Shown here piece by piece: positions 16,101 through 61,735 of a stretch of 64,000 nucleotides of DNA (its first letter is position 1; each line of letters starts with the position of its first letter). The stretch spans positions 74,041,428-74,105,427 of the forward strand of contig JARFYF010000112.1 of NCBI GenBank assembly GCA_030265395.1. Reading direction: 5' to 3'. A program made the translations under genes and the position numbers. This stretch comes from Rhina ancylostomus. Lineage: Eukaryota. Under the pieces are notes generated by a model. That model searched no databases. It worked only from the letters and a program-made list of their open reading frames with translations, and was not told the DNA's origin.

Positions 16101-19100
16101 GATTGAGAATGGAGGGGGAAAGAGAGGGGCATGGGTGAGACAGGGGCTGGTAGGTGATAGGTGACCAACAAAGATTTAAGGATAATGGGCAGAAGGAGCC
16201 AAACTTGAGGCTAATATCAGCCATGACCCTGTTGAAAGGTGAAGTAAGCTCAAGGGACTGCATGGGTTATTCTTGCTTCTATGCTCCCTGGATGGTAGAA
16301 CCATGGAAGGAATGAGGCAGCAACTGCAAGAGACTATATAACCAAAACACACAGCAAGTAGAGTTGCTTAAAACTGCAGTGGAGTTAATCATAAAAGGCC
16401 TTACTTAAGTCACTTAAGTACAGTAAGGTATTCTTTATTAACATCACTTAGTTCATATTTCAAATTACTTATTACTGTCAGCCCTTCACTGTTGAAATGC
16501 CATGCTCTGAGCCCTAAGATTTGTTTTGAAGTACCTGGAAAAGTTTCTTGCACTCTGTGATCATGTGACCCAATCCCTTGGTTGCCGCCAGATTCTCACT
16601 GAGGTCCCTCTGATCAGGCTTACTTAGAACACCTCTCCTTCGGATCATCCTAGAATAAGGCCAGGAAAAAGGTGAGGATGTTCAGAAAACCCAGGCAAAC
16701 TTACATGAAACATAGAGCACATAAGTAAAACTAAATTGTATCAGTTGCACATATGATCACCTAAACACATGTATTCCACTTTTCACATCTGTGTGTGTAT
16801 TCAGATGGCCAATGGAGATGCAAGTTGTTTTTCTTTGATTAATAATTTTCTTTGTGTAGTGGTACAAATGTTATAAGTGTTGTTCTGTAACTCCTAATTT
16901 TCTAAATCAATAGCAAGCATGGGAGGGAGGTTAAGTTTTAAGTCAATCCACAACCCTAAATAATTTTTTTTAACCTTCTCTCCATTTATCTGTTTGACTT
17001 CCTTTTAATCTCTTTATTTTCTTTTTCTATTTTCTTTTTCCCCTGCCCATGTCATCGTCTTTCTCCCTGATCACATGAACTTGGTATTAAACTGGAAATA
17101 ATAATTCCAGGCAAGGATAATGAAGGTTGTCTTCACCTTGAAGATGACTGAGTGATAAAATAATGTCCCTTTTGATTTTGAGGAACTGGATCTACAGCTA
17201 TGTCCTGTGGTCAAAAATCACAATATTATAAACATTGCATATAAATCTAATGATCCATTTCCAGATTTGTCTCATTCATGAGCACTCTCCTTTCTCTATT
17301 CTAAGATCATGTATTTGAACCCTACTTTAGAACCTGGAATACATGATCTAGGATGGCTCTCCAATGAAGCATTGAATTATTAATTTCAAATACTCCTCTA
17401 CTTCTCTATTGTAAAATATCCTTTGTGGGTAGCTGCATGTGTAGAAGCCAGCAGCAAGGTGATGACTACTCTCTCAGCCTTTAACCAAGCACATTCCAAT
17501 ACATTAATTCTCATGCCCAAAAGAGAGTGGAGCAAATCAATGCGTAACACACCACATCCCACTTTGGTTCACTCTCCTAAAACTTTAAAATTTTAGAATT
17601 CCTTATTCTCTAAAGGCTTTTAAAATTCTACTCTGATATCAGNNNNNNNNNNTACTACTTCTTGATTTATTTTAACTTCATTCTTGTTCTTTACAGTCTT
17701 TGGAACCTACAAGATGCCCTTTGACCCACCGACTGGATTTCTTAATAACCAAGAAAATTCAGTCAAGGGGATTACTGATGATGGCATCACCTTGGTAGCA
17801 AGAACATCTTTCCTTCTGCAGAGCAGCAAAAATATAGCAAGCTACCAACCACAGAGTTCCAGCGAACCATAGAGCTCACCTTGGTGAGGAAGTTTCTTTC
17901 TTCAGCACATTGAGGTGGAATAGTGATGGTGCAAGGCACACGGCCAGGTTTCCAGCAGTCATCTGGTTTTGCTGTACAGATGCAATGTCACTTAGGAAGT
18001 ACAACAACGACTGAAAAACCTCACGGTTCTCATCTGGCATCAACACAATGGCAGCCTGAACGGCTTGGAGACGTTGATCCATTGGCACATCTGATGAAGG
18101 GAAAGAAAGATTCATACAGGCTGATCTCCACATCCTTAATGCTTTAGCATTTGCAATCAGGACAACTCCATCAAATAATTACTTCCAAATATGGGGTGAA
18201 ACTACAAGATGAACTTCCAAACCCAGTAAGGGTTCCTCTACTGTGGCTCCCAAACCCATAACCTCTACTGCTCTGACCTACAGTGGCCAGGTGTAAGGGA
18301 ACATCACCACTTCCAAATTACCCCAAACTGTGCATACTGTCCCGACTAGATAACTAATCACCTTTTGTGTGGCAATTCTGAATCAAAATTGTAGAACTTC
18401 ATCATATGTGTTGTGGCAGTCTCAGATGGAGGCTCACTACTACCCACAAGCAATTAGTGATAGGTCAATGAACAATATCAATGTTTCATGAATGAATAAA
18501 TGGGAAAGTAACTTTCAGAAATCATTGAAATAACTATGAACATCAACTCAAATCCAAGATTGTGTTAATCCTTGGGACACAGAATCTCAAAACAATATTC
18601 TGCACATGGATAATGTGGTTAAAGAGCTAATCTGCAAACAAGGATTTCACCTTTGATGTCATCAATTCAATGGTCTCCGTAGTCAAACTATGGAACACTA
18701 GATAGCTTTGGGAATTTAAAAACTGGAATTGTATCACTAGAGCATAACGTGATAACCAGTGATGCTGATGCAATGGAATTCTCTTTGTCCATTGGTTGTA
18801 TGGGATGTATGTGAATTGAGTGCAGGATGATCTTAATCCAATTCCTAGTGGGCATATCCCCACTGTAAAAATTAACACAAAAGTAACAATTATGGAAATC
18901 TCACAATGATACCGTAGGGACATTGCTACTTGAAAGAAGGGGGAGCTTCCAAGCCAAACACAACAAAACTGTGCTGTTACTGGTTCAAATCATCTAAAGG
19001 GAAAGTATTTTATCCCCAAGCACAGATACCTCCTATCTTGATACAACTCAATTACACAGGGAAAACAGATCTAAGTTTTTCAGAATGCAAGGCTTGGATA

Positions 19101-22100
19101 AGTCACTATAACTAATATTAAGATCAAAGCAGTAAAAGTAGCATTTTCTTTATTGCACTCACACTGATAGATCTGTAGAAAGGTTTCTGTCAGTTTGCTG
19201 GTGAAGATAGGTTCTGGAAGGTCTCGGAAATATTGCTTTAACAAGTCTGCTACATCAAACGCTGATTGACCCTGATAATTAACATTGTCAGGATTGTTTT
19301 CATTCATCTGCCTGAGGACCTGGATTCGTGATTTCACACCTGACTTCCTGAAGATACCAACCTGTGTACAACATATTAATGAAGTTAGAGTGCATATTTT
19401 TACTCAAATCAATGTAAACCATTTTTATTGAAGAGAACCTTTGTAAATATACAACACTAGCAGCAAGAAACTGGTCAATGCCTTCACATGCTGGAAGTTC
19501 TTTATGAGGCGGCAATGGGCATCCAAACACTGTTACAGCAAGGACAAGATTGCACAGGCCCAATGATGCTAGAAAGGTTACCACAGTCTATTTCAGGATT
19601 TGTCACTGGGAAGAACACAAGCTGCAATCCCTCACCAAAAAAAAAACAAGGGTTGTGCACTCCTCACCATCCTCTTCAGTGATAGGACCTATGTAGGAGG
19701 CACGGATTAATTTGAAACCTTGACATATCTCAATGAATTAGCTTAATCACATTACCCATGTGATGGATTGTAATGGTTCACAGCTGGCTATTCTTTTCAA
19801 TATAATTTCTCCCAGTTCTTTTTTCTGGTCTTTCCAAATCATTCACTAGCTAGATCCAATTAGGAATGCTCATGAATGACCTTTATCCCAACTTCAGTCT
19901 CTATCATTCAAGACTCAAGCACTGAGATTTACAAGACTTATTATTTTTCCTCTTTGTTTTCCTTCTTCCAAAATTAGCTAATGGCTGATCACTGGCACCT
20001 CAAACTCAACACATGGGAACACATACCTGCAAACCCAAGCCCAACCCCTCCAAACTGCTACACTATTGCACAGTAACATAGTGAACTATCACATATCCAT
20101 TAAAAAATACAAGGTACTGGCATTACAAGCTCATTATTTGTTGGTGCTTATTGAACATGTCCGTGAGACATTACCTCCGACTATTAATAAACTTCCCAAA
20201 CTCTTAACAATTATTCACATTCTCTTGACAACCTTACAGAAATATGATAGTCTCCCGGAGTCACCATGCAAATACTTAAAACTTTCTTAATGTTCTGCTG
20301 CTCAATGGTTTATAATATCATATTGACTAAACAACCAGCCTCTATCCAGCAATAAATTATTTTCAGTGGGTATAAAGAGTGAAAATTAATATATTAATAA
20401 CTCAACAATCCAGAAGAGATCTCATCACCTGAAGGATCACAATCTCTTTACAAACCCTCTACGATTTAGGGATCCCAGTATAAAAACAATGTAATACCTA
20501 ACAAAGTAATAGCCAGCTCTGTGTAACTTCTGGAATTAACCAGATCTAAAGAGAAAGCCTATTGAAAACACTACAACTGGTTCTGGATTTGTAGTACGAC
20601 ACAGAAACACACCTGGCCCATGCACTGACTACGCAAGTAGCGCATGGCTTGTTGAATACTTTGAGGTAGTGGCTGCCCTGACCTCTTGACGTTTATTATT
20701 GGTGGAACACCAAACACATTTTTGCCTCGGTAATCTGGTTCCTTGCTCCTTTTCATGAATTTGGGAACACCCCTACAGGAGCAAAAAAAAAAGCCATACA
20801 AATTAATAGAACACCAAAATCCTGTGAACTGGTTAAAGACAATAAACTTAATTGCTGACAATATACCCCCTTTTATATTATTTCTTTTCCATTCATTCTT
20901 GTGATATGGTCAATGATCTTGATCCTTTAACCCATCTCTCTCTAACATTGCTTCTCATAATTTTTTATCAGCATTTTTATTTCTCCGAAATTCTCATCAT
21001 AAAGACTGTTTACGAAATTAATTTCAGCAGCAGTTTCATGAGGGAGAACATCACATAGCATTGGATATTTTATTGATTTTCTCCTATTCGCTTACTGCTC
21101 CAGATAGCATAGGTCAGATACCTCATCAGGCAGAGTTGGGGCCAAGTAAGGTATACTGGACCAATGACGTGGCCTCTGGGTGCCTTTAATATACCTCCAG
21201 CAAGACTGGTGTTTACAGGTGGAAGGGAAAAGTAGAGCACAGCAGAAGGCCTGAGAGACCCCAAAGTCTAAGTATTAATGGGAGATGAGACATAAATGTA
21301 TCATCTCCCATTGGAAGCCCTCTTATTCTTGCACCTGGGGCAGAATCTCCAGTTTAAAGAGCCTCCTTGTGCAATACCTAGCACTAGATCCTTGCATCTG
21401 GGCAAGTCTGGTGTACATGCAGATGAAACTTGGAGGCTGTGAGTGTCCCCTCCCACCTCTCTATCATCAGAGCACAAACCATGCAGTGGAGACTTAGCTC
21501 CACCACTTTGTCCAATTTTCCTTTTCAGACACCAAGCAAGAAGAAAACCTGGCAAGGTGCTTAATGCAACCTAACCCCACTTGGTGGCCATGACAAAGTT
21601 GGATTTCAAGCCCTTCAGCCATCTGATTTCTAGGTTTTGTCCAGTGGTTGTTGGCCAACCCATTCCTTTCTCACAGGCTGTTTGCCTTTGTTTACAGTGC
21701 ACCCTTCTGACTGCCTTAACACAAAGAATTTCATTCCAAGCTGTTTCCACCCTTTGTGAGCTTTCAAACAATTTAACTCCCCACCTCCCTGATGCTCTCG
21801 GCTTCTGCCCTGTTTCCACATTTCCCCCTCTCTCACAGCTGCGATCTGATATAGCCTCTATCCACTCACTGAGGAAACCATCTGTAATATTCCAAGGGTC
21901 AAAAGGCTGTGCTTGGACAGACTCCAGGTCCTGTGGATTCCTGTTATTGTACATTCTTTGCCTGGTTGCAGTAAATGCGAAGGGACACAATAGCAGGGCA
22001 CATATCCAATTGGATGTTTTTTATCCTCAAGGAAACATAGGGGATGAATCCTCTCAAATCGCCAGGACACTGTCCAGTGACATTGTGTGTGGCTGGTTCC

Positions 22101-25100
22101 TGTGAGCGCTGTGGAGGTTTGAATTATCAAATGCACGAGGAAGGGACTGTTCCAGCAACTTCATAAATAATCTGATTTTACTGCCGCTCCGAGACCACAG
22201 GTTCAAATTTTACAAAACACCAACGGGTTACTTTGTGGAATAATGAAACATGGAGCAAAGCCCAAGCCCATGTGTCTCATACATTTCCTGCAGGTGAGAT
22301 TCACATCCTAAGTGGATGATGTCTGGCAGCAAAACAGCCAAAGTGATCATCATTCAGAAGTGGATTGATTCCTATTCTGCATTGAACATGCTGCACTCCT
22401 TTTGTTGAAGGCACTCCCACAGCACTTCAGGGAGGGACTTCCAGGATTTAGACACAGTGATGATAAATAAACAGGGATATTTTTCCAATTCAGGTTCGAC
22501 TTGGAGGCGAGCCTGTGGATGGTGGTGTTCCCATGATCCTGCTGCCCTTGGCCTTGGTGGTAAATGGCCCTTTCAGAATAGTCTAAACAAGTATTTGCTT
22601 GTTACATAAACTATCCAATCCATGAATTAGATTCTCATGTATTTGCTTTCTTCTGTATAAATCATTTAAATCTCTTCATTAAATCTCTCTGGCTGCCTAT
22701 TGCTCTGCATATGATTCTTTGAATGATGCACATTAGGTTTCATATAACAATCTCATACAAAGTGTCACAGAAAAGTACAGCGTGGAAACAGGTTTCTCGA
22801 TTCATTTATTCTATGTTGACTATCAAGCACCCAGTTACACTCATCCTATTTTTATTCTCTGCACATTACCCTCATCTTCCTCCAGATTCTACCACTCACC
22901 TACACTCTATGGGCAATTTTACAAAAGGCTAATTAACCTATCAAATTGCATGTCTTTGGACTGTAGGGGAAACCCGCATGGTCACAGGGAGAACATGTAA
23001 ACTGCACACCGACAACACCAGAGTTCAGGACTGAACCCAGGTCACTGGAGTTGTGAGGCAGTAGCTCAAGTAGCTGTGCCACCATCCACCCGATGGCGAG
23101 TTTTAGCTGGTGCTTTCCATGGATGCCATACATTTCAATTCTCATTATAGTTATTTGCAAGTCTGACTTAGCCACAAAAATCAAGCAAGTGTGGGACATT
23201 CCAATGTCTCTCTTAGCTCTGTTGCCTACATTCATAAATCTGTCAGATGCAGTAAATGAGACCTCTGGCCACCCTGTCTGTATCCTAGCTACTGACCAGT
23301 TCCAGCCCTGCTTGCTGCGGACAGTATATTTCTCCATGATGGCAGTCAATCGCAGTAGGGAGAATCGCTGCAGGAGGTTGAGTTGAGCTGCTGACTGTCT
23401 GTTGATTTCCATTGAAGCAGAATTCAGGCTGGGGCGGTGAGAGTTCTGGAAACTGTGCCAGCGCAGCTTCCTAAGGAAAGAAAATGCAAAGATTAACAAA
23501 GGAAGCCAAAGTCTGCAAAAACCAGCACCACACAGGGTCAAGGCCAGCATTCCTACAGATACCATGAAGGACCCCAGTTTAATTATTCCTGTCAACGACC
23601 TTTATCATTACAGCTATATCTTGAAGGGTCACAGACTAGGTCACACTAGAGAGTTGCACATTTTCCCATGGCACCTTAGGCCTCAGTGCAGATTTCCAGA
23701 ACATCATTTGGCATTCTTGTAAAAGGAATCTAATTTTTTTGCCTTTAAGTTACCATCTGGACAGGCTGCGATCTTACTTGTGAGAGCTCCAGCCTGATCT
23801 TCTCTCCATCTGACAGACATCCAGCCATCTTCAACAATGCCTGTGCTGGAACAGCAGGTCTTTGTTATAATTGATTTTTGGAGCAATAAAGCATCTGCTA
23901 TGAATGCCCACCAAACCACAGGGAGTGAGGTACCTTTCTGCTTGGTAATTGACTGCAGTAAGAGAAGAATGTGTACCTTAGAGAAAATAAACTTTCTATC
24001 TGCACTTTCAGTGTAAGACATGGGAGCACAGTATGTGTCAGAAGAAAATCATAAAGTACAGGAAATATAGTAAAGGGTTGCATTGAAGTGTTATGCGCCA
24101 TCTTGTAACAAATGGATTGTCATCTGATAATCAATAACATCTGTAGTCTGATGAACGCAAGGGTTATTCTGGAATCTCAATCTTTTGAATAAACATATAC
24201 TGCAGGACAACACTGCTATAGACTCTTGTCACAGGAAACTACTTGTTAAGATGAAGATGAGATTGAAAAAATACTCTTATTCAAAAAGTACCAGTGAACC
24301 TTTGAAGCCCACATGCAGGAGAAAAAAAATACAAAATATGAAATGTCATATTTTAATGCAAGGTTGCAATTTCTGTTCTTGTTTTTATCCTCTTCTCAGC
24401 TACCTCCCTGTTCTTCTAGAGCCTCTGATTGTCACTGGGATACCTTGCCCAACTGCATTTTCGCAAAATTTGAGTACTAAGGGATACAAGACCACTGGGA
24501 CAGCCCAGATAAAATCTGATCTTATCTCCATTCAACATCCACACAGGCAGAGTTTCCAAGATGCATCAATGGGCCATGACCAGGGATGGGAATCCTGGCT
24601 CATTTTCCCTCCTACCATGCCCACTGCAGTGCTGAAATGCTGGGAACAACTGTTATCCCATGACTGCTTCCTGTCTAAAACCAGCCAGCTCAGCATTGAC
24701 CAGAAGCAAGCCATTTCCAAAGCATTTTTGCAATCATACTTTGCTGAATTACAGTCAGTTATATGAATAGTCAGAAGGCAATAAGACTTGCATTCATGTA
24801 GTACATCACGCATTTCCAACTGCTCCATAAATAGAGGATTACTTTCAGACACACACTGCTATTACAAGCCATTTTGCACACAGGAAAATCCCACAAACTA
24901 AAGCAAAATTTTTCTTTGGTGGTGTTTACCTGCTGGGAACACTAGCCAGGACACCCTATCAAATAGTCATAGAGTCATACTACACAGAAACAGGTCCTTC
25001 AGCCCATCATGTCCATGCTGACCATTAAGTACCCATCTCTACAAATTTCATTTACCAGCACTTGGTGCATAGCCTTCTATGCCTTGGCAATTCAAATGGT

Positions 25101-28100
25101 TGCAGATGCTTCTTGTATGTTTGAGTACCTGCCTCCCCACCACATTCTCAGACCATGTGTTCCAGATTGCAACCAGTAAGTGCCATGAGATCTTTAATAT
25201 CAACATGAAGAACCTAAACAGAGCTCGTATTCAACATCTCAACAGAAACGCAACACAAGGTTGTCAGACTGTAGCAATTTACAGTCACTTGTATTGGGAA
25301 CCATTTTATATATGGCATATGTGTGTATTAATTCTTGAGCTGCAGTTTGCTGGGGGTTTCCATACTGAACTATCAGCATGTATTCCTACTGACTATCAGG
25401 AAGATGGGACTTCCACATTCCAAGCACCATCCGCTATTTGTCAGCTGCTCTCCAACAGCGGGCTCTCATGGAGCCCTGCAGAAGGCCACAAAAGTGCTGC
25501 AGTTCCTCACGAGTCCCATTGCGGTTTCCTGCCTTTACCTGCTTAGATCTAGTTTAGAAATGCAAGTCCATTCAGTTAAATGAAGAGGAACATCTGGCTG
25601 AAAGGTTCATGGATAAATATAATTTACACATTTCTGTGTTAATTAGGGTTGCTTAAATATTGTTAACTGTTGAAGTATTGCGTACATTTTCATTTTAGAT
25701 AATTCGAAGATTTTGTTTGTTATATTTGTTATTTATTTTCTTATTATTGAATTGACAGTTTCGTATTCACAGATCTTGCCAGGTTTGACAGCTGGCAAGT
25801 TCATGGGCAAGGCTCAGCCAGCTGTCAGTTTTTCTCGGCTGTGTTGTGGACAGAGCTGTGGTTTGTTCATATGAAAGCATTGTACCACATGAGGCCTTGC
25901 TGGTTTGCCAAGTCTCACCATTTTGAATTGGAATAGCTTCTNNNNNNNNNNNNNNAAGATAAACCCATAAAAAGTAAGTCACGTGTCTAAGTGGCAAATG
26001 TGGGCAGCTTGCCAGAGGTGAACCAGTTCGATGCTTTATGATGCAATACTTGAAAGGAAGGAAACTCAGGTTGGTTCTGTTACAGCAGGGAAAACTCCCC
26101 TCCAGATTTTCCTTTCTGCTTGCTGAACTAATGTTGTGTAACATCCAGACAGAACAGATGAAATCTATTCCATTTTAATACTCACGCACTATATCATGAG
26201 TGTGACAAATGATACACTGAATTAAGTTCCCTTCAACTGGGGAGCAAGGCATGGAATTAATTCAAACAGTATTTCACCAAGTGGTAACTCTTCACACACG
26301 AGTTTAATCAGTTAGTCAACTTATTAATGAATATCTCATAACTAACCTTAGGCTCTCCTCATACAATATTCACCATACAATCCAACAAGGAGTGAGTAAC
26401 TATAGATCTGAAGGAAGGCTAGAGTTTACCGTATTGCACCTATTATAAACTGAGCTAAGATAATCTAAATTGTTCCAAACCAACACCAAGCCACAGCTTA
26501 ACTGGTTCACAGTTCAATGACAAGCTGTGCTGAATAATAGAGACAGCCTACAAAATGACCTGTGTTTGATATCTGCAACTATCAACAAAAAGATCAGAAG
26601 TCTCTACCTGTTTGGTCTGGTTAACGAAGCCCCTACTCCAGAATCTCTCCGATCCCTCATCTCCATTTCTTCAGCTTCATTTAGTGAATTCCCAGTACTA
26701 TCAAAATCACTTGCAGTTGTCCCCACATCAGACATTGAGCGGTCTTCAAAATTCAAACCTTGCAAAGGAAAAACTGTTTCTCCAGTAGAGTCAGACTCAG
26801 TGTCATTATAATCAGTGCACATCATTTTTGACCAACTGTCTACTCTCTGCCGTAATCCATTGACATGCTTCAAAACATCATCTAGTTGTTTAAAGTAGCA
26901 CTCAGGTCCACCTATGCTATTGTACAGGTGGGTCTCAGGCACATTGTCATAAAAACTCTGCCTGCTGTCCACAGAGCTACAGGAATCCCTTCGTCCTTGA
27001 AAGCCCAGTCGCTGAAAATTGTTGCTGCTACCACATGTAGACATTCCAAAGGAGCTGTTTCCTGATCTCCATTTTACCAAATGGTTATCAGCACCTGGAC
27101 ACAAGCTTTCTATGGAGAGGGCTTTGGGGAAGGTTCCTAATTTGTGATTTGTTGGGATGCGAACAACATAATCTTCTTGAGAACACATATTGTCTCTTCT
27201 ATTATGATTGGAGGTCGTGAAGCCCATTTCATAATCTTCCAAGTACAGTCCACAATGCTTTGAGCCATGGCTCCTAGATTTGCCTGAAGAACATTCTGTA
27301 CATCCACAATCAGCCAGTGAAGGAATGCCAGATTGAGATAAGTTATTCATCAAGTTCTTGGGGCTCTGGTTCCCAGTTTTCAGAGGACTGGAACTCTGTA
27401 ATGGCTCATTGTATGGCTGTAATACTGTTTTGATACTTTTTGTCTCTTTATTCTTTGAAGCCATTTTGGCTTTGTTCCGAAGGGTTTTAAACCGAAGGGA
27501 TTCAATCCGTCTAAGAAAGCTCTTGGTCCGCTGTTTTCTGGGGTTCTCTGTGAAGTCTGGAGTGGTTTGATCTCCAGTGGGAACATGGCTATCAAGTGTG
27601 CAGTTGTGAGCCTGCTCTGCTGCTTGGGGATTAGCCACCAGGACTCTCCCAGGATCTTCCTTTGCCGCCAGCTGATTGTTCGAATTGTGACCCGCCAACG
27701 CTTCCTGGATGCTCCCAACACTGCTGCTGCTGTGCACAGAGCTGGCTTCTGGATCACTGAGCTCCGAGAGAACACTCTCACGGCTGGCCGACTCCTTCAT
27801 TATCGAGCTTAGGACCTCTGCCCGGTTCAACTGGAAATCAGCAACTGTCAGGCGAGACCATCTCCTGCTCTCTCGCTGAAATGCCCAACGATCACTAATA
27901 GCACAGACGTCTTCATCAGAATCATCATCCTAGAATGATAATAGCACAGTGTTATGAAATGGCCATATCGTAAGGAAAGCATAAGAGGGAACAATGGGAG
28001 TGATGGTGATCCTAAAGAGCACCTGATAACTGGAAGTTATTCCTCCACTCCTGAGAGGCACTGCCCTTAGTGATATACCATGCCTTTACTGGTATCCTCA

Positions 28101-46700: not shown

Positions 46701-49059
46701 GCCCCTTTAAAAGCTGTCAGATTTAAATCCCTCGCTTCTTTTATTTAATATATAACATTACACAGCGATGGGACATAAAATAGTACTGGAGAGAACGATT
46801 ACTGCAGAAATTAGTCTTCACTGAGCATACCTGCCAGGTGCAATGACTTTTTCAAATTGCCAAGATATATTGCTGCATGTGATAGCAGTGTTGAAAGGTG
46901 CCCAGAAGTCTTCTTGCTTCTTATAAGTCGAGATGGTACTTACTTTAANNNNNNNNNNNNNNNNNNNNNNNNNNNNNNNNNNNNNNNNNNNNNNNNNNNN
47001 NNNNNNNNNNNNNNNNNNNNNNNNNNNNNNNNNNNNNNNNNNNNNNNNNNNNNNNNNNNNNNNNNNNNNNNNNNNNNNNNNNNNNNNNNNNNNNNNNNNN
47101 NNNNNNNNNNNNNNNNNNNNNNNNNNNNNNNNNNNNNNNNNNNNNNNNNNNNNNNNNNNNNNNNNNNNNNNNNNNNNNNNNNNNNNNNNNNNNNNNNNNN
47201 NNNNNNNNNNNNNNNNNNTCCTCACCAGATAAGTGACATGTAAAAACAATGAGAAAACCTAACAACAGAAAGTGGGACTTATAGATTTTGGAATGAAGAG
47301 GAACGCCACAAACTACACAAAGGCAAATTGTGGAGTCCTACATGCCTTGATTGCCTTGGGGTTTTCCAATCATTCCCAAGTTGCTACTGCTGTAGGATGT
47401 AGATTAAGTCCCAAATTTGATGAGGAACTAGAATTAGCACTCCTCCTGGCCAAGGGGAAAGCAATTGCCAAGATTCTCCATTCCCAAATGCTGTTGAAGA
47501 GCCCTGGTGAAAGTGACGTTTAGTGCAAATCACCCACCATCAATCATCTTAACTTTTCAGCATTCTACAGAAGAGAGGAACTAGACCACCTTACGTAAAT
47601 GGAAAGTCAGAGTTTAGAAATGTGTACAGCTGTAATCAAAGCCTGCTCATCATACAGACAAATAATATATCTGGTTGAATCTATGCAGAAGAGCTACTTA
47701 AATTTATCATCATTAAAATTTATGNNNNNNNNNNNNNGGCCCATTAGTTAACAAGCTATTTCACACTGACCAATGTTTTCTTTACTGAGTGTACAGCTTC
47801 TATATCAAAAGAACTTAAACCAACATCGATTTATATTGGTAAGATCCAGATTCCAGAACTGGGCACCAATTGTTAATAGCTTGCAAGTAGCAAATGAGAA
47901 GCCAAAGGAATGACATGGTAACAGAAATGCCACCTTGGTGCCATGTTATACATATGGTAGGAGGCATTTCAGGATGATGCTTTTGGCGTAATATAGAGGG
48001 AGAAATTTATTGATCATCTTACCTCCAAGGACCCTATCTTACCAGACAGAATAGGTGGAACTTACTTTGGATGTAACCTGACACATCTGTCAGCTGCTGA
48101 TTTTGAAACACAAAAGCAAACACTACCCAGATGCTGCTGGAGGAAGACAGTTCAGTGTACACCCTGAAAATTGCTGGAAGTATGAACTAAGAACGGGGCA
48201 GATGGACTTTGGCAAACAAGAGTTCATCTCCTTAGCTACCTAAGGATTGAGAAATAAAAAGGAAGGAGGAAAGAGGGTGAGTAAGAATCAAATCAAAAGG
48301 AAAAAGGTTTGGGTTGAGAGTGAAAAATGAGACAGAAATTTTAAAAATCTCTAAAGTGTAATTTAGATCCAACCTTTTAAATTCTTTTCCACTGAGACCA
48401 GAGAAGTTGATAGGCATTTCAGGACCCTCACAATCTAAGTAATCTCCTCAACCTTCCAGAGTAAGTGAACCGATAATTAACATGCAAATACAGTGATTTA
48501 ATGAAACTCACAGGGACAATTAGTGCAAAAAGCTATATCTGCAAAGTCAAATACAAAGGGGGGAAAAATCATCCAGCAATTTGTCACAATTCACAATTTA
48601 CAGATATCTCTTTCCTAACACAAGTTACTGGACAATTTACTCATTATTAACTGGGTACGCATTAAATTTTGGAGGCAAATTCTTGTCCATTATCCAGACC
48701 TTTAATTTATCAATCAATAAATTAAAGCCCAGGACTGTGCACATGTGCATGAGCATGCATACATGCATGTATATTACACAAACACACACACAAATACACA
48801 TGCTCTCATACAAACACATACATTGTATTCACACAAAAACATATGCTCACAAAATCATGCACACATTCACACACAGACTTATACATACAAACATGTACTC
48901 ACTTTNNNNNNNNNNNNNNNNNNNNNNNNNNNNNNNNNNNNNNNNNNNNNNNNNNNNNNNNNNNNNNNNNNNNNNNNNNNNNNNNNNNNNNNNNNNNNNN
49001 NNNNNNNNNNNNNNNNNNNNNNNNNNNNNNNNNNNNNNGAAATTGCAACAAGGTTGAGA

Positions 49060-50569
49060 TGCACTCACACACACAACAAACTGGGTACAAAAAAATCAAG
49101 GAAGGAACAATACAGTGCCTGCCACCCCTTGATTCAGTGCAAGCATTGGCTCTACTCTCCCGGGAATCTACCTAGGACACTCCTAATCCTTGTGGAAGTG
49201 CAAACTCTTACCAATGGTGTCTTCAGCATTGTTTCACGATTCCTGGAGCAATCAAAAGAGAGAGAACCATGCACGTGTGGCATTCTTTATCGTGCTGGAG
49301 GGCTGGGTGGTCCAGCCCAGGTAATTCAAGCAAGCCAATGGCTCAAGGCCAGGTACAAAGGTGTTTACAGAGGTCCAAGGTCAAGTGTGAACTAATGGGT
49401 GGGTGGAGTCAGACTTTGATTGACAATGATGTGACTTTCGACCAGATTGTCAATGGTGTCATGTGACCAGATGGTCAATGGTGTCACCTTCAGTGTGTTG
49501 CATGCCACTCTCATTTCGTTAGCCAGCGTCTGAAGCATGCTGGTCATTTGGATGACCTCACGGGACAGTCGGGCCATGCCATACATGGGAAAGGCTATCA
49601 TCCAGAACCTCTCCACCTCCATGATAGCCCTCTTGTCCCGGTGGCTGCTGTATGCCAGGTCCTCCCTAAGGTCATCGGGAGTGTGGATATAGGGCACCAC
49701 AAATGCTGGAAAGCAGCAACCGTGCCAGCTCGTGGGGAGCCACAGATAGACACGATGGCCACAAATCCAGTGGGTCCCGTTCAAAGTCCAGGGAGCCCCA
49801 GCATAGCGGCACCATCGGCAGTGGTTGCTGAGGCACCCGGATACCAGTTTCACTTGCATTCACTGTAGCCAACTGAAAGCATAGAAGTCTGCTCATTCAG
49901 GAGTATTCCCGAGGCTTGGTCAGCAGCTGTGGAATGACTCGGAAGGTCGGGACTCAGGTGGAGGTCAAATTGTAGGGAAGGAAATACCAGTTCCTGAAAC
50001 ACCCACCCCACTGAGGATCACTGGAAGGGATATCCTGTAGTGGTAAGGGGAGTGGTCGGGAACTGCCATCTGCCACCACCCCCCCCCCCTCCAAACAGAT
50101 ATACCAAACCTGGCAGGTGTGAACAGTCTATGTAAGCAGTTCATTTGAAGATCATCCGAGGGATCAGTGTAACTGGTAGAGCTTCACCAGCGTGTACTGG
50201 GGTTCAGACACAAATCCAGCAGTCTGATTTGTTGGAGGTGTTGGCGAATTCATAGGTGATTCTGCGGAAGGTGTCAGCAGACGTTCCGATGCCAATCATC
50301 ACAGTGAACAGAAGGAGTGAGTGTAGTAGTGGCATTATCCTGTAGGGGTGGGGGGGGAGCGTTGAGGAACAGACTCATTTTGGCGGGTCAGGTGTTGGGT
50401 ATGAAGACAGGATAGGTTTGTGTGACCCGGAATCACGACCCAACAGGTGTCCCCGGAACCACACGCAATGACCTCTCCCTTCTGAGGGAGTCCCTGTGGC
50501 GGTCGGACCCACACTCTCCCTGAGTCTTCGGTCTTGGGGGGGTTTGGGGTCTTGCAAGTCGGGAGGTGG
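49060..50569 (-). mobile_element. Degraded endogenous retrovirus: integrase C-terminus + env + putative 3' LTR remnant
   Basis: pol end GRVWVRPPQGLPQKGEVIACGSGDTCWV (50335-50569); env from ATG 50333-50335 with signal peptide, CWIC, NGTHWICG..LPTSWHGCC, RDKR, fusion peptide; LTR-like sequence below ~49500. Confidence 0.85.
49500..50335 (-). pseudogene. env: Retroviral env pseudogene (gamma-type SU/TM)
   Basis: MPLLHSLLLFTVMIGIGTSADTFRRITYEFANTSNKSDCWICV* (CWIC 50210-50221, stop 50204-50206); frameshifts; furin site RDKR at 49629-49640 followed by AIMEVERFWMIAFPMYGMARLSREV. Confidence 0.85.
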
Positions 50570-50695
50570 NNNNNNNNNNNNNNNNNNNNNNNNNNNNNNN
50601 NNNNNNNNNNNNNNNNNNNNNNNNNNNNNNNNNNNNNNNNNNNNNNNNNNNNNNNNNNNNNNNNNNNNNCACACAAACACACATGCCTGCACACT

Positions 50696-50696
<1 letters not shown>

Positions 50697-50741
<45 letters not shown>
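50697..50741 (+). repeat. (CA)n microsatellite; degenerate CA-rich tracts also at 48740-48900 and 51180-51400
   Basis: Direct reading. Confidence 0.95.
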
Positions 50742-50745
<4 letters not shown>

Positions 50746-52619
50746 TATGAATGAAAACCAGCTGAAAGCAATCCTCTTTGGCAATGTCGACCCTACTATA
50801 GAAAAAAAAATTAGCAGCATCTCTGAATATTCCTTGGAACTGTGTACACCCCACAGGCTGCATCTCAAAGAAACCCCATCTGGAATTCTATCCAGATGCC
50901 TTAATGAAACTCAGTATTCATTCCCTGAGAAGTGAGACCCACCTTTTAATCAACCAGTGCTGTTTTATGTTTCTTCCCCCCAACACTTAAGGAGTGACCT
51001 CATTCATGGGAAGTGGAAAGTAAAAAAGATTTTATTTGAACGTAGTCATTGAGTCTTTATTCACACAGCTTGCTTCTAATTACGTGGGTCATCCTGGCGC
51101 CGGAGCTGAAACCCAGCCCAAAGCAAGCAGTGACCCAGAGTTTAAATTTAGATGGGCAGCAACCACTCTGCACTGCAGAGTCACACCCCCACACCCACCA
51201 GCCCAACACAAACAAACACATNNNNNNNNNNNNNNNNNNNNNNNNNNNNNNNNNNNNNNNNNNNNNNNNNNNNNNNNNNNNNNNNNNNNNNNNNNNNNNN
51301 NNNNNNNNNNNNNNNNNNNNNNNNNNNNNNNNNNNNNNNNNNNNNNNNNNNNNNNNNNNNNNNNNNNNNNNNNNAGATGCACACACTCACACAAACACAA
51401 TCTATTATGTAAGAACATAGGAATTTTTAGGAACAGGAAAAAGTCATTAATCTTAAAGCACTCCTTCACTCTGGATCAACTCCACCTACTTCCATCTTGA
51501 TCTATTCATTCTACAGAAACACATTTAATTATCACTTGTGAATCATTCTACCACCCCCAAACATTCAATTTTCTCCTCACCTCTTTCCTTCTACTACAAG
51601 GGGTTTGCTACAGTTAGGCCATAATTCCTTAGAAGAATTAACCTCTCAAACCTCAGCAACATAGTCATCCTTCCAGCATGAGCTCGCTCAGCATTGGCAG
51701 AATAGTTAACTGCAGATAACATTGCAGCAGATTCCTACGCTGCTCTCTTCCTTTTGATAGCAACATCCCACCAATCTGCCCCATCATGACTCCCAACCAT
51801 TTTCTAGATATTTTCAATAGGATGGAAGGGGCAGTGGCAAATCCTGAAGCAGAAACAAGGAGCATCATTATCATTGATTAAGGCACCTATCTCACCACCA
51901 GAATAGCCCTATTTTAGGTGAGATGCTAAAGGCCAGTGGTTGTGGCAGATGCCCTCATCATGTTTAAAATGTACCTGGATGTGCCTGTGTCCTATAACCT
52001 TCAAGGGCATAGACTGTGAGCTGGGAAGTTGGTTTAGTCCAAATAGCTCTATGTTTGGCTAGTATGGAAGTGATGGAATGAATGGCCCCTTTCTGTACTG
52101 TAAATTTCCATAAATTTCTGATTTCATGCCCCTCTTGATATTTAAGCATTGATGCGTTTCAAACTGGAACAGTATTGGAGCAGGCTATTCAAAGAACTGA
52201 AACATAAGGAAAATCTCTCATGAAGTGGTGATGTGTCCTTCTGAAAAAGTGTTTGGGGGAAAAAAAAATTCTTGATATTCTACCAGAACGGACGAGCGTT
52301 CCCAGGCAGTTTCCTTCCTTACTCAATCAGGCCAGTTTGAAGGCGGGTAGGGGGCAGGGGAGGAAGCTGCTCAGAATATTTTTGGCAATTATATTCAAGC
52401 TAACTGTCTTGTGAATCATGGGCCTCCGAAAGTGTGCACTGCAGACAAAGCTTCATAAATAGGAAACAGCCCCGGGAAGCACAGAGAAGCGGGAAGAGGG
52501 ATTTTTTTAAAAAAAGAATGTAAGAATTTAACTCTTTAGTTGCATTAATATCTTGGTTCAATTGACAACATTCAATGTTTTGTGTCAGGAGAGTGTGGGT
52601 TAGTCCCACATCAAGACTT

Positions 52620-54580: not shown

Positions 54581-56399
54581 TGGTTAGACAGATATCTATC
54601 AAGATATATAGAAACACAGTAGACTTGGTCACGTTATTCTTTCCCTCCTTGTGCCGAGGAGGTTCAAGGTTAATTTTGCTCCCGAATAAACTTTGTAGAT
54701 TAATCATGATCAATGTTCACAAAACATAAATGGTTTCAATATAATATTCAACTCACAAAGCAATTCTCACAAATACTAGTTTGTTCTGGAATAAAAGATT
54801 GAAGCAAGAAACCGCAAATTGCTGAAATTCCAGCTCCAAATCCTGAAAAGCTTTGGCCATCATATTTGATAATTTTTATAACTGGAGTCCATGACACCCA
54901 TTGATTTTATCAGCGGTCCCAATGTTTGACCTGGCTGAACAAATTAATTCACACATACACCAAGTAAACTGGAAGCATTGGAAGAGTACCAAATGAGCCA
55001 AGAAATCAAATAGACTGCAAAGCACTGTTCCAAAATCAATGCTGAGTGTACCAAAATAACAAAGATTAACTGCTCTTTCCAGTTTAATATGATTATTAGT
55101 TTATATTAACCATTCCGCTTCATTGAATAACTCTTACTTTTAGATGGAATAGCTTATTAATTACCAATGGAATGCAAAGGCCAGCAGAATAATCATCATG
55201 AACAAATAGAAAACATTGCAGTTTGAACAAGTTAATATGCAACAAACTCTGAAAGGATCTGAAATGGAAATATTCCCTTTCCCAGTACAGAAATCACATG
55301 AATTCTCTTCCTGTTCTATTTGCTACAAATGTGAACAGTCACAGTGATTAACCCACATGCTGATGAATACATATCAGATAGTCAGTACCCTGAGAAATAA
55401 ACTGGAAGTCCATATCAATACACAGTAACTAATCCTTATCATGTTGATTGAATGGCCACTCAGCATAATTGCAGACAAAGTAGATTTTATTATAGTGTAA
55501 TGCTGTGTACATTATAGTCAAATGTGGTGTAACCCTAAATGTACCATAGAGCAGCAATATTTACTTGCACAGAAAAGGCTATGAATGGAGGAAAGCTAAA
55601 TTACATTCACGATCATACAAATTGGTTGCTTAAAGGGAAGTTATCAATGAATCTGTTTTCAACAGTCTATTAACCAATGCATTCCAGATCACAATTAACT
55701 GATAAATTCTTATCTCTTCTTAAGAATCCTGCCAATCAAAGAAATAAACAGCTTTCTATGGATGCAATGAGATTTTTCGGTGTATAGCCTATCCAATTTC
55801 TCCAACTAATTTGGTTCCCTTCTCCAGGATACCACTGCACATTCGTTATTGAGGACATCCAATAATAGAAACATGAAATACGCATAACAATTCGAAGTGT
55901 CATTTTGAAGATCTTTGCCCAATCAAACAATGGACCAAAACAACGATTATGTACAAGTTCTTGAATAATGTGAAGAAAATGCATTGCCGTTAAACAGCAT
56001 CTGTATCAAGGAGTTTAAAGTATGATAGATGCTACAAATAAGCTCTGTTATTTTATTGCTTCTGAAATTTTACCATCACAAGGCTCTCAGAGAGCCTCAA
56101 AGCCACTGTGAACATTGGACAGGCAGGGCACATATCAATCAGTGTAGGAATCCAGTGTCATTGCACTATGATATGCTACTCCAACTATGCTAAAAACTAA
56201 TTGGGAATAAACACTAGCAAATATAGTTGACTTTTATGGTACATGGGCATTGCTGGCAAGGCCAATACTTCTTGCCCATTCCTTGAGAAAAAGGCATCGA
56301 GTCAGGTGAAAGTACTCCCACAATTGGTAGGTAATTTCAGGCTCAATGACCTTGAAAAAATTGCAATATTTTTGCAAGTCAGGATAGTGTGCAACTAGA

Positions 56400-56870
56400 A
56401 GGGGAAGGCGAATATGGGGGTGTTCCCAAACCTTAATAAGTACCGACCAGTGGCTCTGACATCCACCATCATGAAGTGCTTTGAGAGGCTGGTCATGACA
56501 CACATTAACTCCAGCCTCCTGGAAAACCCTGACGCACTACAATTCCCCACCGCTGAAAGGTCTACAGTGGACGCCATCTCCCTGGCGCTACACTCATCTC
56601 TGGAGCATCTGGACAGTAAAGACATCTATATTAGATTGGTAGTTTATTAACTACCACTCCACCTCCAATAGCATAATTCCAAGCAAACTCATCACCAAAC
56701 TCCCAGACCTGGGACTCAACACCTCCCCCTGTAACTTCCTGACCAACAGAATGCAATCAGTGAGGATGGACAGCAACACCTCCGCCACAAATAGTCTCAA
56801 TGCTGGTGCCCCACAAGGCTGCGTCCTCAGCCCCCTATGGTATATGTGACAATAATAAACCAATTTACCA
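56400..56870 (+). mobile_element. Rex1/Babar-like LINE RT fragment, internally deleted and joined to its 3' tail
   Basis: [50 protein letters not shown], then tgtgacaataataaaccaat tail. Confidence 0.85.
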
Positions 56871-57144
56871 AACTTGGTCTGTTTTCATTTGTTTTCTAGC
56901 AACTGCAGATTTTTTTTAAATTTTCAAATAGGGCTTGTGAATATGGTTTAAAACCAAAAACTGGTGGGGAGGGATCAGTTGAGGCAAAAATTAGGAGGTT
57001 AGAGAAAGGGGGAGTTGATCATGCAGTCTGCGATCAATGGGCAATGATGACCAATGTGTAACAAGAAGGGGCAATGTACTTGCAGAGGTAGGGGAAAAAT
57101 GGTAAATGAACAAAATGCAAGGTTTTATCTGAATACAGCAAATT

Positions 57145-57418
57145 GACTTATTATTGTCACATATACTGAAGTACAGTGGACAAACTTTGTTTTGTATGTC
57201 ATCCACACAGATCACTACATCACATCTGTGTATTGAGGTAGTACAAGGAAAAAGCAATAACAGAATGCAGAATAAAGTGTTATAGTTACAGAAAAAGTGC
57301 AGATAATAATGCGCAAGGCCATAATGAGGTAGATTGTGAGGTCAAGAGTGCCCCCTTATTATACTAGGGGACCATTTTATAATCTTATATCAGTGGGACA
57401 GAAGCTGTCCTTGAGCCT
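57145..57418 (-). mobile_element. Rex1-like LINE 3'UTR, 5'-truncated
   Basis: Reverse complement of the 61490-61735 tail. Confidence 0.75.
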
Positions 57419-57949
57419 CCTGGATGGATCTTCACTCTGCGCAGGATTCCACATGGACGGGCCCATCCTCAGCCTCGCTGGTCCGTTCCATGTGGATCCG
57501 GAGGTCGGGTTGGTAGTTCATGCGCTCCAGAAGGTTGGAAGATCGCCAGACCTGCAAGTAGATTTAAAAGAACATTATTAGTAATACTTAGAGTTATAGA
57601 ATTTAGATTTAAAAGAGTATAATGACTATAATAGAAATAATGAGAGGATCTACAGAGAGCAGCTTGCAACAAGTCACCATGCTCCAGAGCCATTTTGCTT
57701 GATAGAAGAATTGATGGCCTAAATTGAAGTAAATGGGTACAATCTGATTGACATGAGCAATATATGGTTGTGAGGCAACCAAGGCTGAAAATGCTTTGTG
57801 GTGCAACATGTCAGAAAGATAGACAAAAATGGATTTAGAGTAACTTTACTAATAGAGGATGAGATCAGCACCGTAGTGAGAATGCTTTCTATTCATTAAC
57901 TAATCCTCCATCCATCATAATGTAACCCTGACTGCATGAGATCTTATCT

Positions 57950-58930
57950 TGTTAGGGCACTACTGACCTGTTAGCTTAATGTCAGTAGCAGGGGAAAATG
58001 TTGGAATCTGTAATGAAGGATGAATAACAGAACACTTGGAAAAGAATAATGGGTTTGAGCAGATTCAGCATGGATTTGTGAATGGAAAATCATGTTTAAT
58101 CTACTGGAGTTCTTTGAGTATGTGAGTAGTAGAATAGATAAGGAGGAATCAATGGTAAATTGGTTTATTATTGTCAAATGTACCGAGATACAGTGGAAAA
58201 ACATTGTTGTGCATGCCATCCGTACAGATCATTTCATTACAACAGTATATTGAGGTTGTACAGGGGAAAACAATAACAGAATGCAGAATATAGTGTTATA
58301 GTCACAGAGAAAGTCCAGGCAGACAATAAGGTGCAAGACCATAACGAGGGAGATTGAGGTCAAGAGTCCATCTTATTGTACTAAGGAACCTGTAGCTGTG
58401 ACACTTTATTCTGTTATTGTTTGTACTACCTTAATGCACTGTGTTATGAATTGATCTATACGAATGGTATGCAAGACAAGTTTCAAGTGACAATAATAAC
58501 CCAATACCAAAACCGTTCAATGGTCTTATAACAGTGGGATAGAAGCTCTCCTTGAACCTGATGCTATGTGCTTTCAGGCTTTTGTGTCTTTTGCCTGATG
58601 GGAGGAGGAAAAGCGAGAATGTCTGGGGTAGGTGGGATCTTTGATTATGTTGGAAATATTTGGATTTTCAAGCATTTGATAAGTTCCTGTGGTCACAAAG
58701 TTGAAGTGGGGGGTAATATACTGAGATGGATTGAGAATTGGTTGTTGGGCAGAAGGCAGAATGGGCATATATGAATCTTTCTCAGGTTGGCGCCACAGGG
58801 ATCAGTGTTTGGATCACAGCTGTTCACTCTCTATAGCCTGAGGGAACCAAGTGTTATATTTCCAAGTTTGCTGATGATACAGAACGAGATGGAATTGTGA
58901 CTCTAGGGGAGCATGTAAAGAAAGTTCAAT
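57950..58930 (+). mobile_element. CR1 fragment containing nested Rex1-like insertions (58155-58652)
   Basis: QHGFVNGKSCL..LLEFFE and KFADDT motifs flank two Rex1-like tails in opposite orientations. Confidence 0.75.
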
Positions 58931-61079
58931 GGGNNNNNNNNNNNNNNNNNNNNNNNNNNNNNNNNNNNNNNNNNNNNNNNNNNNNNNNNNNNNNNNNNNN
59001 NNNNNNNNNNNNNNNNNNNNNNNNNNNNNNNNNCATGGAATCCATGTGCTGGACAACAAGGCATTAAAGGAGCCAAATTGAGGGCCAGAACCCAGAACCA
59101 TGACAGTTATAATGATGATGAAGAATCAGTGATATGTTTCAAAAGCTGGATGATGTGTGACTTGGAGGTGGTGGTGTTCTCAAATGACTCATTCCCTTGT
59201 TCTCCTAGGTAGTAGAAGTGATGGGTTTGCAAGGTAAACTTCCATTAAAGTTCATGCAAATTCACTAGATTATGCCCTAAGCTTAACTAGCTAACTCATG
59301 AGTAAACATGGCTTACACTTCTTGCTTTTAAGATGATCAGTAACCTATTGAAGAAATTTGAAACATTGAAGATTTTAGAATCATAGACACTGAGGAACTA
59401 TTTCTTCTGACTGGGAACCCAAAGTGACACCATCTTTAAGTTGAAGCTAAACCATTCAGGAGTACAGCGATGAAGCATAATTTCACAGATGGGAGAGTGA
59501 AAATCTCATCCTTGGACCCCCAAGTATCTGTGGGTATTGGATCAAATGAAATGTTCAAGACCAAAATAAATATAGTTTTGTTCGGCAAGTCTCTCATGTC
59601 AGGCAAATAGACCCACAAACTCTACCATCAGGAAGGACAAGGCAGCAGGAGCATGGAGACAGTATCAAATCTAGGTTCCTCTCCAAGTCATATACCACCC
59701 TGTCTTGGAAATAAATCACCAGTTCTGCACTATCATTGAAAATGAATTTTTTTTAAAAATACACATTTGCAACTATCCAATGAAATGGGGGATCAGACTT
59801 GAGAGGCTGAATTTTTCTGGAAGGAGACTGGAGGAAAAGCAACATGAATTGACGGGTAAATGGGGAAAAGAGTGTTCAGATTTAACAGGGGAGCAAGGGG
59901 AATGGAATGCACCTCTGTTTTCTTCTTATTGGCTGAACAATTATAAATGATTGAAAACATAAATGTGTATCCTGGTAGCAATTTCTCTGCAAAAAAATTA
60001 AGGAAAGCCCATATCCATTTTTAAGCATATATTTGTACATATTATGACATCTTAAATATTCTTGCAATGTGCAATATAACAAGCCTGTGCAGTACATCTC
60101 CAAGGTAGGTGTCGGACTGTTTTAGAGCTGTCGGCATTTTTGGAAGCCATTCTGTTGTTCTCCAGCCTGGCACATCAAGCTCTCTCCAAATCACACATAT
60201 GAAGAAGCAATGCTTTCAACGATGTTAAGTTCTTATCAAAGTGAATTTCCATTCCCGCAACTGCTGTCAGGATCACATTTAACTGTGACCACAGTGCTCA
60301 GAAAGAAATTGTTGTCACAATATTAACACCATGTGATGCGTTTCACAGCTCACTGGAAGGTGTTAATTTTCCTCCCAATAGGCATTGTCAGGCTGGCCAA
60401 GTATTCCTCAAGATCCAGCCATTAGGCTCTCCCCTCTGTCAGCTGTTGCATTTCTCTACACATTGGTATTATCACTCCTCGTTTCACCCAGCTCAGCTCT
60501 GATCGTCCATGTGTGTTCCTACCAATCAAATCATACTGGCCTGAGAGTTCAGGACACACACTAACCATTTTAAGCTGCCTCTGGTAAAATGTAGACCAGC
60601 AGGAGACTGCTGGAGATATCACTTTGCTTATTCTCCTGGGAAAAATATTAATTTTACATAAAGGTCCTTGATTAGAATTGCTGATATCGTTCACAAGGAA
60701 ATCAATTCTATATTTTAACCACTCCTTGAATAAAGAATTAAACTATTTTGTACTGGTGGTACAATATTTAATGCTTAAATGAGACATTGTATCCTTTAAA
60801 GTTTACATAGTTTTACATTTCTTTAAGGCATTTAAGTCTGAAGTGTGCTGATTTAGCATTTGAAACCAATCATTTCTTTTAGAGCAGATATTAAATATTT
60901 AAGTGTCATTACAAATTTCAGTTGACTCTTGATTTTTAGACAATCAAAAAGTAACATCCAAGCTCACTCAAACCAGACATTAAAAATCTAGTTGTATTTC
61001 ATCTTTGCTGATCTTCCAAGGTCAATTTAACATAAAGTGCATTTATGTTCACAGATGGATGCCAAGTTACATAATGAAA

Positions 61080-61735
61080 GTCCAAACATGTAGACACCAC
61101 AGCAAGAAAGCTCACCAGTGTCTCTATTTCCTCAGGAGGCTAAAGAAATTTAGCATGTCCCTGTCGACCCTCCCCAATCTTTATCGATGCATTATAGAAA
61201 GCATCCTGTCCGAATGCATCACAGCTTGGTATTGCAACTGCTCTGCCCATGACCACAAGAAACTGCTGAGAGCTGTGGACACAACTCAGCACATCACAGA
61301 AACCAGCCTTGCCTCCATGGACTCTGTCCATACTTCTAACTGCCTCAGTAAAGCAGCCAAGCACCCAGAAGAATCAAAGACCCCACCCACCCAGGACATT
61401 CTCTCTTCTCTCCCATCGGACAGAAAATACAAAAGCCTGAAAACACGTACCACCAAGCTCAAGGACAGCTTCTATCCCGCTGCTATAAACTACTGAATGG
61501 TTCCCTAGTATGATAAAATGGACTCTTGACCTCACAATCTACCTCATTATGACCTTGCACATTATTGTCTACCTGCACTGCACTTCCCCTGTAGCTTGTG
61601 ACACTTTACTCTGTATTCTGTTATTATTTTTTACCCTGTACTACCTCAATGCACTGTATAATGAATTGATCTGTACGAACTGTATACAAGATAAGCTTTT
61701 CACTGTACCTCAGCATGTGACAATAATAAACCAAA
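61080..61735 (+). mobile_element. Rex1/Babar-like LINE 3' end (ORF C-terminus + 3'UTR)
   Basis: KKAHQCLYFLRRLKKF..LYRCIIESILSECITAWYCNC..RTTKLKDSFYPAAI; tail tgtgacaataataaacc. Confidence 0.88.

Follow-up and report, generated by a model that had tools for sequence, protein, structure and literature searches.

This locus raises the question of how the end of a class III (ERV-L/S-like) pol gene comes to stand directly ahead of a gamma-type env. The window, that is, the whole stretch of 64,000 nucleotides of Rhina ancylostomus DNA that was analyzed, carries both on its minus strand, and the parts of the element are as follows.

49039-50569, minus strand: whole element remnant, a decayed 3' fragment with integrase tail, env, and part of the 3' LTR
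50375-50569, minus strand: pol end, a short linker and the integrase C-terminal domain (RVWV..P..GEV); the same peptide is found in sister copies
50340-50372, minus strand: predicted env splice acceptor, a pyrimidine tract plus AG four bases upstream of the env ATG, from the comparison of junctions
49629-50335, minus strand: env SU, about 235 codons interrupted by stops and frameshifts, with a signal-like leader, CWIC, the NGTHWICG..CC block, and the furin site RDKR
49483-49628, minus strand: start of env TM, a fusion-peptide-like hydrophobic stretch and the beginning of heptad repeat 1
49467-49483, minus strand: deletion junction, with about 480 to 500 nt gone (483-nt gap relative to copy L034)
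49039-49467, minus strand: 3' LTR remnant, about 430 of about 600 to 680 nt, ended by the 133-N run
48906-49038 (133 N) and 50570-50669 (100 N): N runs bounding the element

As argued below, this remnant is very probably the 3' part of one copy, now dead and with an internal deletion, of a multicopy endogenous retrovirus (ERV) family with a pol that groups with ERV-L, ERV-S, and XtERV-S, a gamma-type env, and a likely history of reinfection of the batoid germ line.

The minus-strand frame ending at 50335 reads GRVWVRPPQGLPQKGEVIACGSGDTCWVVIPG. The env ATG lies at 50335 and is followed by a hydrophobic leader, CWIC at 50221 to 50210, the NGTHWICG..LPTSWHGCC block, and RDKR at 49640 to 49629 with a hydrophobic stretch after it; the pol-tail and env peptides quoted in an earlier, sequence-only reading of this DNA were all present where it had placed them. 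That reading had let the element span 49060 to 50569. Its pol tail and env stood, but the segment from 49039 to 49467 proved to be the 3' LTR remnant and not env: it is 86% identical to the 5' LTR of copy L043 and matches both LTRs in two-LTR copies. The stop at 50335 to 50337 is not the pol end of the family either: at 15 of 16 sister junctions the pol stop codon lies about 40 nt ahead of env, and the window frame overruns this usual stop through a frameshift. The window env is split over three frames, with stops, and keeps only CWIC and the furin site of the gamma-type marks. Sister copies match positions 1 to 1085 and 1103 to 1510 of the window query separately, with about 490 extra bases in between; lost in the deletion are the ISD, CX6CC, the membrane anchor, the polypurine tract, and the LTR start. 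The three window peptides alone matched no family in a Pfam search, and the window copy is today without a coding function. Because its own 5' part is N, it is linked to reverse transcriptase (RT) by family likeness. As 43 of the 110 N runs in the fetched loci are 100 nt long, more than of any other length, the missing gag-pol of the window copy may be an assembly gap.

The same gaps bear on another explanation, namely, that the fragment is real but does not belong at this locus, having been scaffolded as a 1.5-kb contig between two gaps. This is favored by the N runs of 100 and 133 nt on either side of the element, although masked gaps and true gaps look alike, and by the GT-rich ends of the element. 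A 3781-nt contig of organism B (run X2) also bridges both flanks, joining 48902 to 50803, the letters between not being known; among the matches listed, it holds no long piece of the element. The copy may be absent there, lost, or misplaced in the present assembly, but an absence in organism B also fits later insertion or loss, and the flank at 50745 to 51220 is single copy in the genome. An empty site in organism B, if confirmed, would help in dating the insertion. We consider misplacement unlikely. In run X1, the flanks matched without differences and no long identical piece of the element was seen (0.18 of the element words); since a hole in X1 coverage proves nothing with the method used, this run was set aside as evidence.

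The neighborhood contains exons of a RhoGAP-START gene (DLC1/STARD13/STARD8 family) at window positions 11322 to 27929 on the minus strand, with START at E 4e-14, RhoGAP at E 1e-13 and 2e-19, and a 441-codon serine-rich frame at 26604 to 27929. The ERV lies about 21 kb 5' of these exons, on the strand that carries them. At 56399 to 56849, 57140 to 58500, and 60984 to 61700 there are decayed remnants of LINE-like RT and of repeats, of a kind typical for this host.

Copies and layout of the family

When the genome was searched at the DNA level with the window element, 40 of 2674 candidates were scored and yielded 64 matches, and the best 15 loci were 78 to 84% identical to it over about 1.05 kb; with so many genomic matches, the window peptides are not a product of chance. 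An RT query matched at all 150 scored candidates of 796 found, and an env query yielded 128 matches from 123 scored of 1519 candidates, both counts being lower bounds for the family. In four studies of four related organisms, contigs that match the element at an identity of at least 85% number in the thousands; among the sequencing runs listed with element matches, none is RNA.

Regions of up to 10 kb were fetched, 20 of them anchored on env and 20 on RT. Fuller copies (L048, L036, L021, L017, L020, and L045) are organized as LTR-gag-pro-RT(HYIDD)-RNase H-integrase-env-LTR, with a full length of about 7.5 to 7.7 kb when the duplicated 1.1 kb of env in L048 is left out of account, and their natural frames matched RVT_1, RNase_H, rve, and TLV_coat in Pfam (TLV_coat, E 4e-11). 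The joining of pol to env is the native junction of the family, as seen at 17 sister junctions. A pyrimidine tract plus AG stands directly before the env ATG at 17 of 18 junctions, the window included; this is a predicted splice acceptor, and env would be expressed from a spliced RNA as in known retroviruses.

The LTRs have TGT..ACA ends. A primer-like site follows right after the LTR end at 16 sites, a 17th match not lying behind an LTR, and its complement occurs at 11 genomic places, with a tRNA T-loop; ARAGORN called tRNA-Ser (Ser-TGA/CGA) in three of the six such places that were examined. Reverse transcription would thus, by known retroviral biology, be primed by tRNA-Ser. Target duplications are of 5 bp, with one exact, three at 4/5, and one at 3/5 among five assessable copies. 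Nine LTR pairs are 86 to 94% identical over 250 to 570 sites (K2P, 0.066 to 0.155). With a mammalian rate, the median K2P of 0.115 translates to about 26 My, and with the rate that the available part of PMC4422223 assumes for sharks, to about 260 My; given ages tenfold apart, no insertion date is claimed. Between gag and pro, 16 of 23 sites carry an in-frame stop codon and the other 7 a sense codon. As some sites carry sense codons, readthrough is inferred from the majority of copies; Gag-Pol would be made by readthrough of this stop, as known for retroviruses.

Six copies (L023, L026, L029, L045, L047, and L053) have one and the same sense codon at the gag/pro site, which may mark a sublineage with a fused Gag-Pol. 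Internal tandem duplications were observed in L048 (about 1.1 kb of env), L022 (integrase-env), and L036 (gag/pro junction). Signs of a second subfamily were found in L040, L044, L046, L049, L051, L052, and L054; the direct repeats of L046 and L049 do not match the window LTR, and the env of L040 and L046 is only 35 to 51% like that of the main group.

Affinity of the pol gene

The class III (ERV-L/S-like) nature of the pol end, proposed at the outset, was upheld by the match of the window tail and by the linked RT and integrase trees. Against 282 proteins gathered by their likeness to class III Pol or RT, the window integrase tail best matched ERV-L/S-like Pol C termini (phmmer, E 7e-7). Profile and phmmer searches of a 170-protein set with this tail gave nothing significant, and class I-like Pols with MLVIN_C tails were absent among the integrase-tail matches listed. 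In the family, the tail begins about 75 to 80 nt after the integrase core, compared with about 200 residues in dUTPase-bearing relatives, which indicates that the family has no dUTPase. The RT motif is YIDD (HYIDD type) in 10 of the family's own 21 rows, the others being decayed or cut, and YVDD in none. No CX2CX4HX4C zinc knuckle was found in Gag in 39 oriented loci, where decay could hide some, and the ERV-L-like gag blocks of the family have a match (E 1e-7) in a class III Gag from a caecilian. A gypsy element was set aside on the basis of the domain order with env, the best RT matches, and the PDB matches.

For the careful RT tree, 44 rows were taken from 84, with 264 columns. The trees were built without named SnRV, HERV-S, MuERV-L, foamy, or gypsy sequences, and their labels denote likeness to file 1 of PMC8278194. 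Within the available part of that file, P0172 of X. tropicalis corresponds to the XtERV-S RT row except for a three-residue deletion and was therefore used as XtERV-S; by eye, the Talpa and P0185 rows look like the ERV-S rows of that file, and those of the P0044 group like the ERV-L ones. In the RT tree, the family forms a clade (100/99) that is united with the Pol of Narcine and a second Pol of Hemitrygon in a batoid clade (98/88), and the latter is sister to the ERV-L, XtERV-S, and ERV-S-like rows (94/89). The integrase tree recovers the batoid clade with an SH-aLRT of 87 and has an open fork above it. Hence the fuller copies, examined in separate RT and integrase trees, group with ERV-L, ERV-S, and XtERV-S. 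A union of pol with epsilon or gamma retroviruses, named beforehand as the result that would speak against class III, did not emerge: forcing the family together with class I was rejected in the AU test (p-AU 0.031), although this rejection is itself modest. Union of the batoid clade with the ERV-S-like rows was borderline and not rejected (p-AU 0.051). Overall, these comparisons support class III membership of the family pol, whereas its placement among class III relatives, i.e., its exact sister, is loose.

Among named proteins, the nearest are all from stingrays, namely, a Hemitrygon RT (67%) and Hypanus envs (75 to 76%), relatives that point to an elasmobranch host. This Hemitrygon RT fell inside the family in one quick tree and as its sister in two others; in the quick RT tree, 99 of 150 proteins were kept, the others being too short. 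The sister in both the RT and integrase trees is a second batoid class III lineage, with P0188 from Hemitrygon akajei and P0276 from Narcine bancroftii as its members. Because P0188, annotated as a Gag-Pol of 1520 residues, belongs to a cluster of 13 sequences, it may be younger. Separately, a class III-like Pol of 1374 aa (P0023) is combined with thymidine kinase, thymidylate kinase, and dUTPase domains (PF00265, PF02223, and PF00692), which is an unusual gene-capture architecture.

A different affinity must be weighed here, in which the family would belong not with the ERV-L/S-like elements but with the class III type related to SnRV, where CmiERV lineage I and ERV-SA.a-Ppe have been classed. 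The best RT tree leaves the YVDD group outside (96/89), but a union of that unnamed group with the batoid clade was not rejected (p-AU 0.062); the SnRV label of these rows is, for its part, inferred. SnRV-like and epsilon-like lineages of the elephant shark are reported in the available part of PMC4422223, and the accessible text of bioRxiv 2021.11.23.469661 calls all its class III gamma-env ERVs, ERV-SA.a-Ppe included, SnRV-related. Nevertheless, the HYIDD-type motif with YVDD in no row, the ERV-L-like gag blocks, the lack of a zinc knuckle in the 39 loci, and the integrase-tail matches to ERV-L/S-like Pols all point away from SnRV, and we regard such an affinity as quite improbable.

Envelope, spread, and decay

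The gamma type of the env, also proposed in the sequence-only reading, was confirmed at the level of the family, where CWIC, the furin site, ISD, CX6CC, and a membrane anchor are all present. The family env spans about 405 to 410 codons from ATG to stop and has a short tail. In 25 env rows (24 loci plus the window, with matches outside env dropped), CWIC was found in 13, CX6CC in 12, and an exact ISD in 7. An N-x-T glycan site at the heptad stutter, a mark of the nonmammalian subgroup of gamma-type Envs, compared by eye with the available part of file 7 of PMC8278194, is present in 8 of the 15 env matches at that site. By known retroviral biology, SU and TM would be joined by a CWIC-CX6CC disulphide. 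The best PDB matches of the family TM are syncytins and filovirus GP2, and the env Atlas neighbors are TLV_coat clusters. Four protein relatives of the env were found; those of Hypanus bear the automatic NCBI names "PABLB env-like" and "syncytin-B-like," given by similarity only, and no scored genomic copy is more than 79% identical to the Hypanus env.

To follow how the family multiplied, variants were classed per codon column, with CpG-prone sites excluded and 60 more short regions added, and a variant present in at least 15% of copies was counted as shared. Among 68 env copies (233 columns), which are best-scoring copies and not a random draw, shared variants comprised 41 synonymous and 9 nonsynonymous changes and no stops, versus 49 synonymous and 221 nonsynonymous changes and 9 stops among singletons (Fisher p 3e-18). 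The corresponding synonymous-to-nonsynonymous counts in RT (43 copies, 150 columns) were 48:5 for shared variants and 35:116 for singletons. The variant classes suggest that purifying selection acted on env during the multiplication of the copies and that env would have decayed neutrally after insertion. Since the shared env variants are mostly synonymous, like those of RT, the family likely spread by reinfection, i.e., by repeated infection in the batoid germ line.

The family could instead have multiplied mostly inside cells, by retrotransposition or trans complementation, with env as a passenger. Many copies, L023, L026, and L038 among them, have large internal deletions and yet keep both LTRs, suggesting packaging in trans, and several RT-anchored loci show no env. 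However, shared env variants that are nearly all synonymous and include no stops, as in RT, argue for selection on env in the copy-producing lineages, with which an extra spread of deleted forms is still compatible. Intracellular multiplication as the main route therefore seems fairly improbable, and reinfection is preferred.

Rays include live-bearers, and an env kept as a domesticated, syncytin-like host gene was also considered. The syncytin-B-like and PABLB env-like names of the two Hypanus relatives reflect similarity only, and at one locus an env frame with N on its borders runs for 392 codons without a stop, but that frame is without the furin, NGTHW, and CX6CC patterns. The rare env variants are mostly nonsynonymous in all 68 copies (N:S, 1.2 to 6.0), and stops, frameshifts, and the missing membrane anchor rule out the window env itself as a domesticated gene. 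Six loci with long stop-free env frames were checked for domestication within the 123 scored of 1519 env candidates, and nothing was found. Domestication thus appears extremely improbable.

Comparison with known class III elements

Cartilaginous fishes are thinly sampled for ERVs, and we know of no infectious counterpart of class III ERVs of such a simple type. This large ray family, Ser-primed, devoid of a dUTPase, and with an env selected during its spread, brings a known type of virus to a host that has been little studied, and it adds to the evidence for infectious, env-bearing class III viruses in the deepest branch of jawed vertebrates. The question of codivergence versus host switching of ERV-L/S becomes testable with existing shark and ray genomes.

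According to the available part of PMC6001957, class III falls in clade Huo, which is present in all major vertebrate groups, and the viruses of cartilaginous fishes are not basal; in its S2 Fig, the whale-shark Rh_ty_ERV3 adjoins No_fu_ERV1, HERVL, MuERV-L, and HERVS. Within the first 400 letters of its printed sequence, the Rh_ty_ERV3 Gag looks by eye like that of the ray family and that of Hemitrygon P0188. The ray family, the second stingray lineage, the electric-ray lineage, and probably Rh_ty_ERV3 may form an elasmobranch-specific lineage that is sister to the bony-vertebrate ERV-L, ERV-S, and XtERV-S. This arrangement is allowed by the best RT tree and rests on one short domain, and we advance it tentatively, as a possibility of low probability. 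If true, the lineage would mirror the host tree and move the ERV-L/S radiation back to the split between cartilaginous and bony fishes. The ancestor of ERV-L/S would then have been env bearing, infectious, and primed by tRNA-Ser, with the env-less ERV-L derived.

In the available part of bioRxiv 2021.11.23.469661, gamma-type envs are described from six cartilaginous fishes, and ERV-SA.a-Ppe has a class III Pol. It is therefore, like the ray family, an anamniote ERV with a class III Pol and a gamma-type env, and it could be the ray family itself or its sister, as compared by description only; our guess is that the host code "Ppe" denotes a sawfish. A published account of a batoid family of this type was not found, and supplements or repeat libraries may hold one.

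ERV-L has a Leu primer. With ERV-L (HERV-L and MuERV-L), the ray family shares the HYIDD RT, ERV-L-type Gag blocks, the 5-bp target duplication, and membership in the same radiation. As described in the available parts of PMC8278194 and PMC4724089, however, ERV-L has no env and carries a dUTPase after the integrase, and the ray family is the opposite on both counts. The family is thus not ERV-L proper, since env is present and dUTPase absent.

HERV-S/ERV-S, HERVL32, and HERVL66, as given in the available part of PMC4724089, have a class III pol, no dUTPase, and no Gag zinc fingers, like the ray family, and every credible class III env found there was class I; PMC8278194, in the part available, likewise describes ERV-S with env and without dUTPase. 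The tRNA-Ser primer, class I env, and lack of dUTPase that characterize HERV-S are all found in the ray family. The HERV-S group env is related to PABL/PRIMA41 (PMC4724089, available part), and a Hypanus relative of the ray family received its PABLB env-like name automatically. In contrast, the best RT tree separates the ray family from the ERV-S-like rows (Talpa and P0185), with the borderline p-AU of 0.051 for their union given above, and the hosts of the HERV-S type are amniotes, whereas that of the ray family is a fish.

XtERV-S, as described in the available part of PMC8278194, combines a YIDD class III gag-pol with a class I env, a tRNA-Ser primer, TGT..ACA ends, a 5-bp target duplication, an in-frame gag stop, and no zinc knuckle, all of which recur in the ray family. 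The envs are also alike in being short, with an early CWIC, ISD, CX6CC, the heptad-stutter glycan site, and a short tail (441 aa in XtERV-S versus about 405 to 410 in the ray family). The two differ in that XtERV-S has a dUTPase-like segment after the integrase and an env that overlaps the pol stop, whereas the ray family has no dUTPase and its env begins after the pol stop, at the interval of about 40 nt noted above. XtERV-S is, moreover, intact and recent, while the ray copies are old and dead, and the family RT is about 45 to 50% identical to Xenopus P0172 (taken as XtERV-S), on a separate branch. The combination of a class III pol with a gamma-type env is already known in HERV-S, HERVL32/66, XtERV-S, and ERV-SA.a-Ppe, with frogs and humans among the hosts. 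Overall, the architecture of the ray family is not new, and the family works like XtERV-S and HERV-S.
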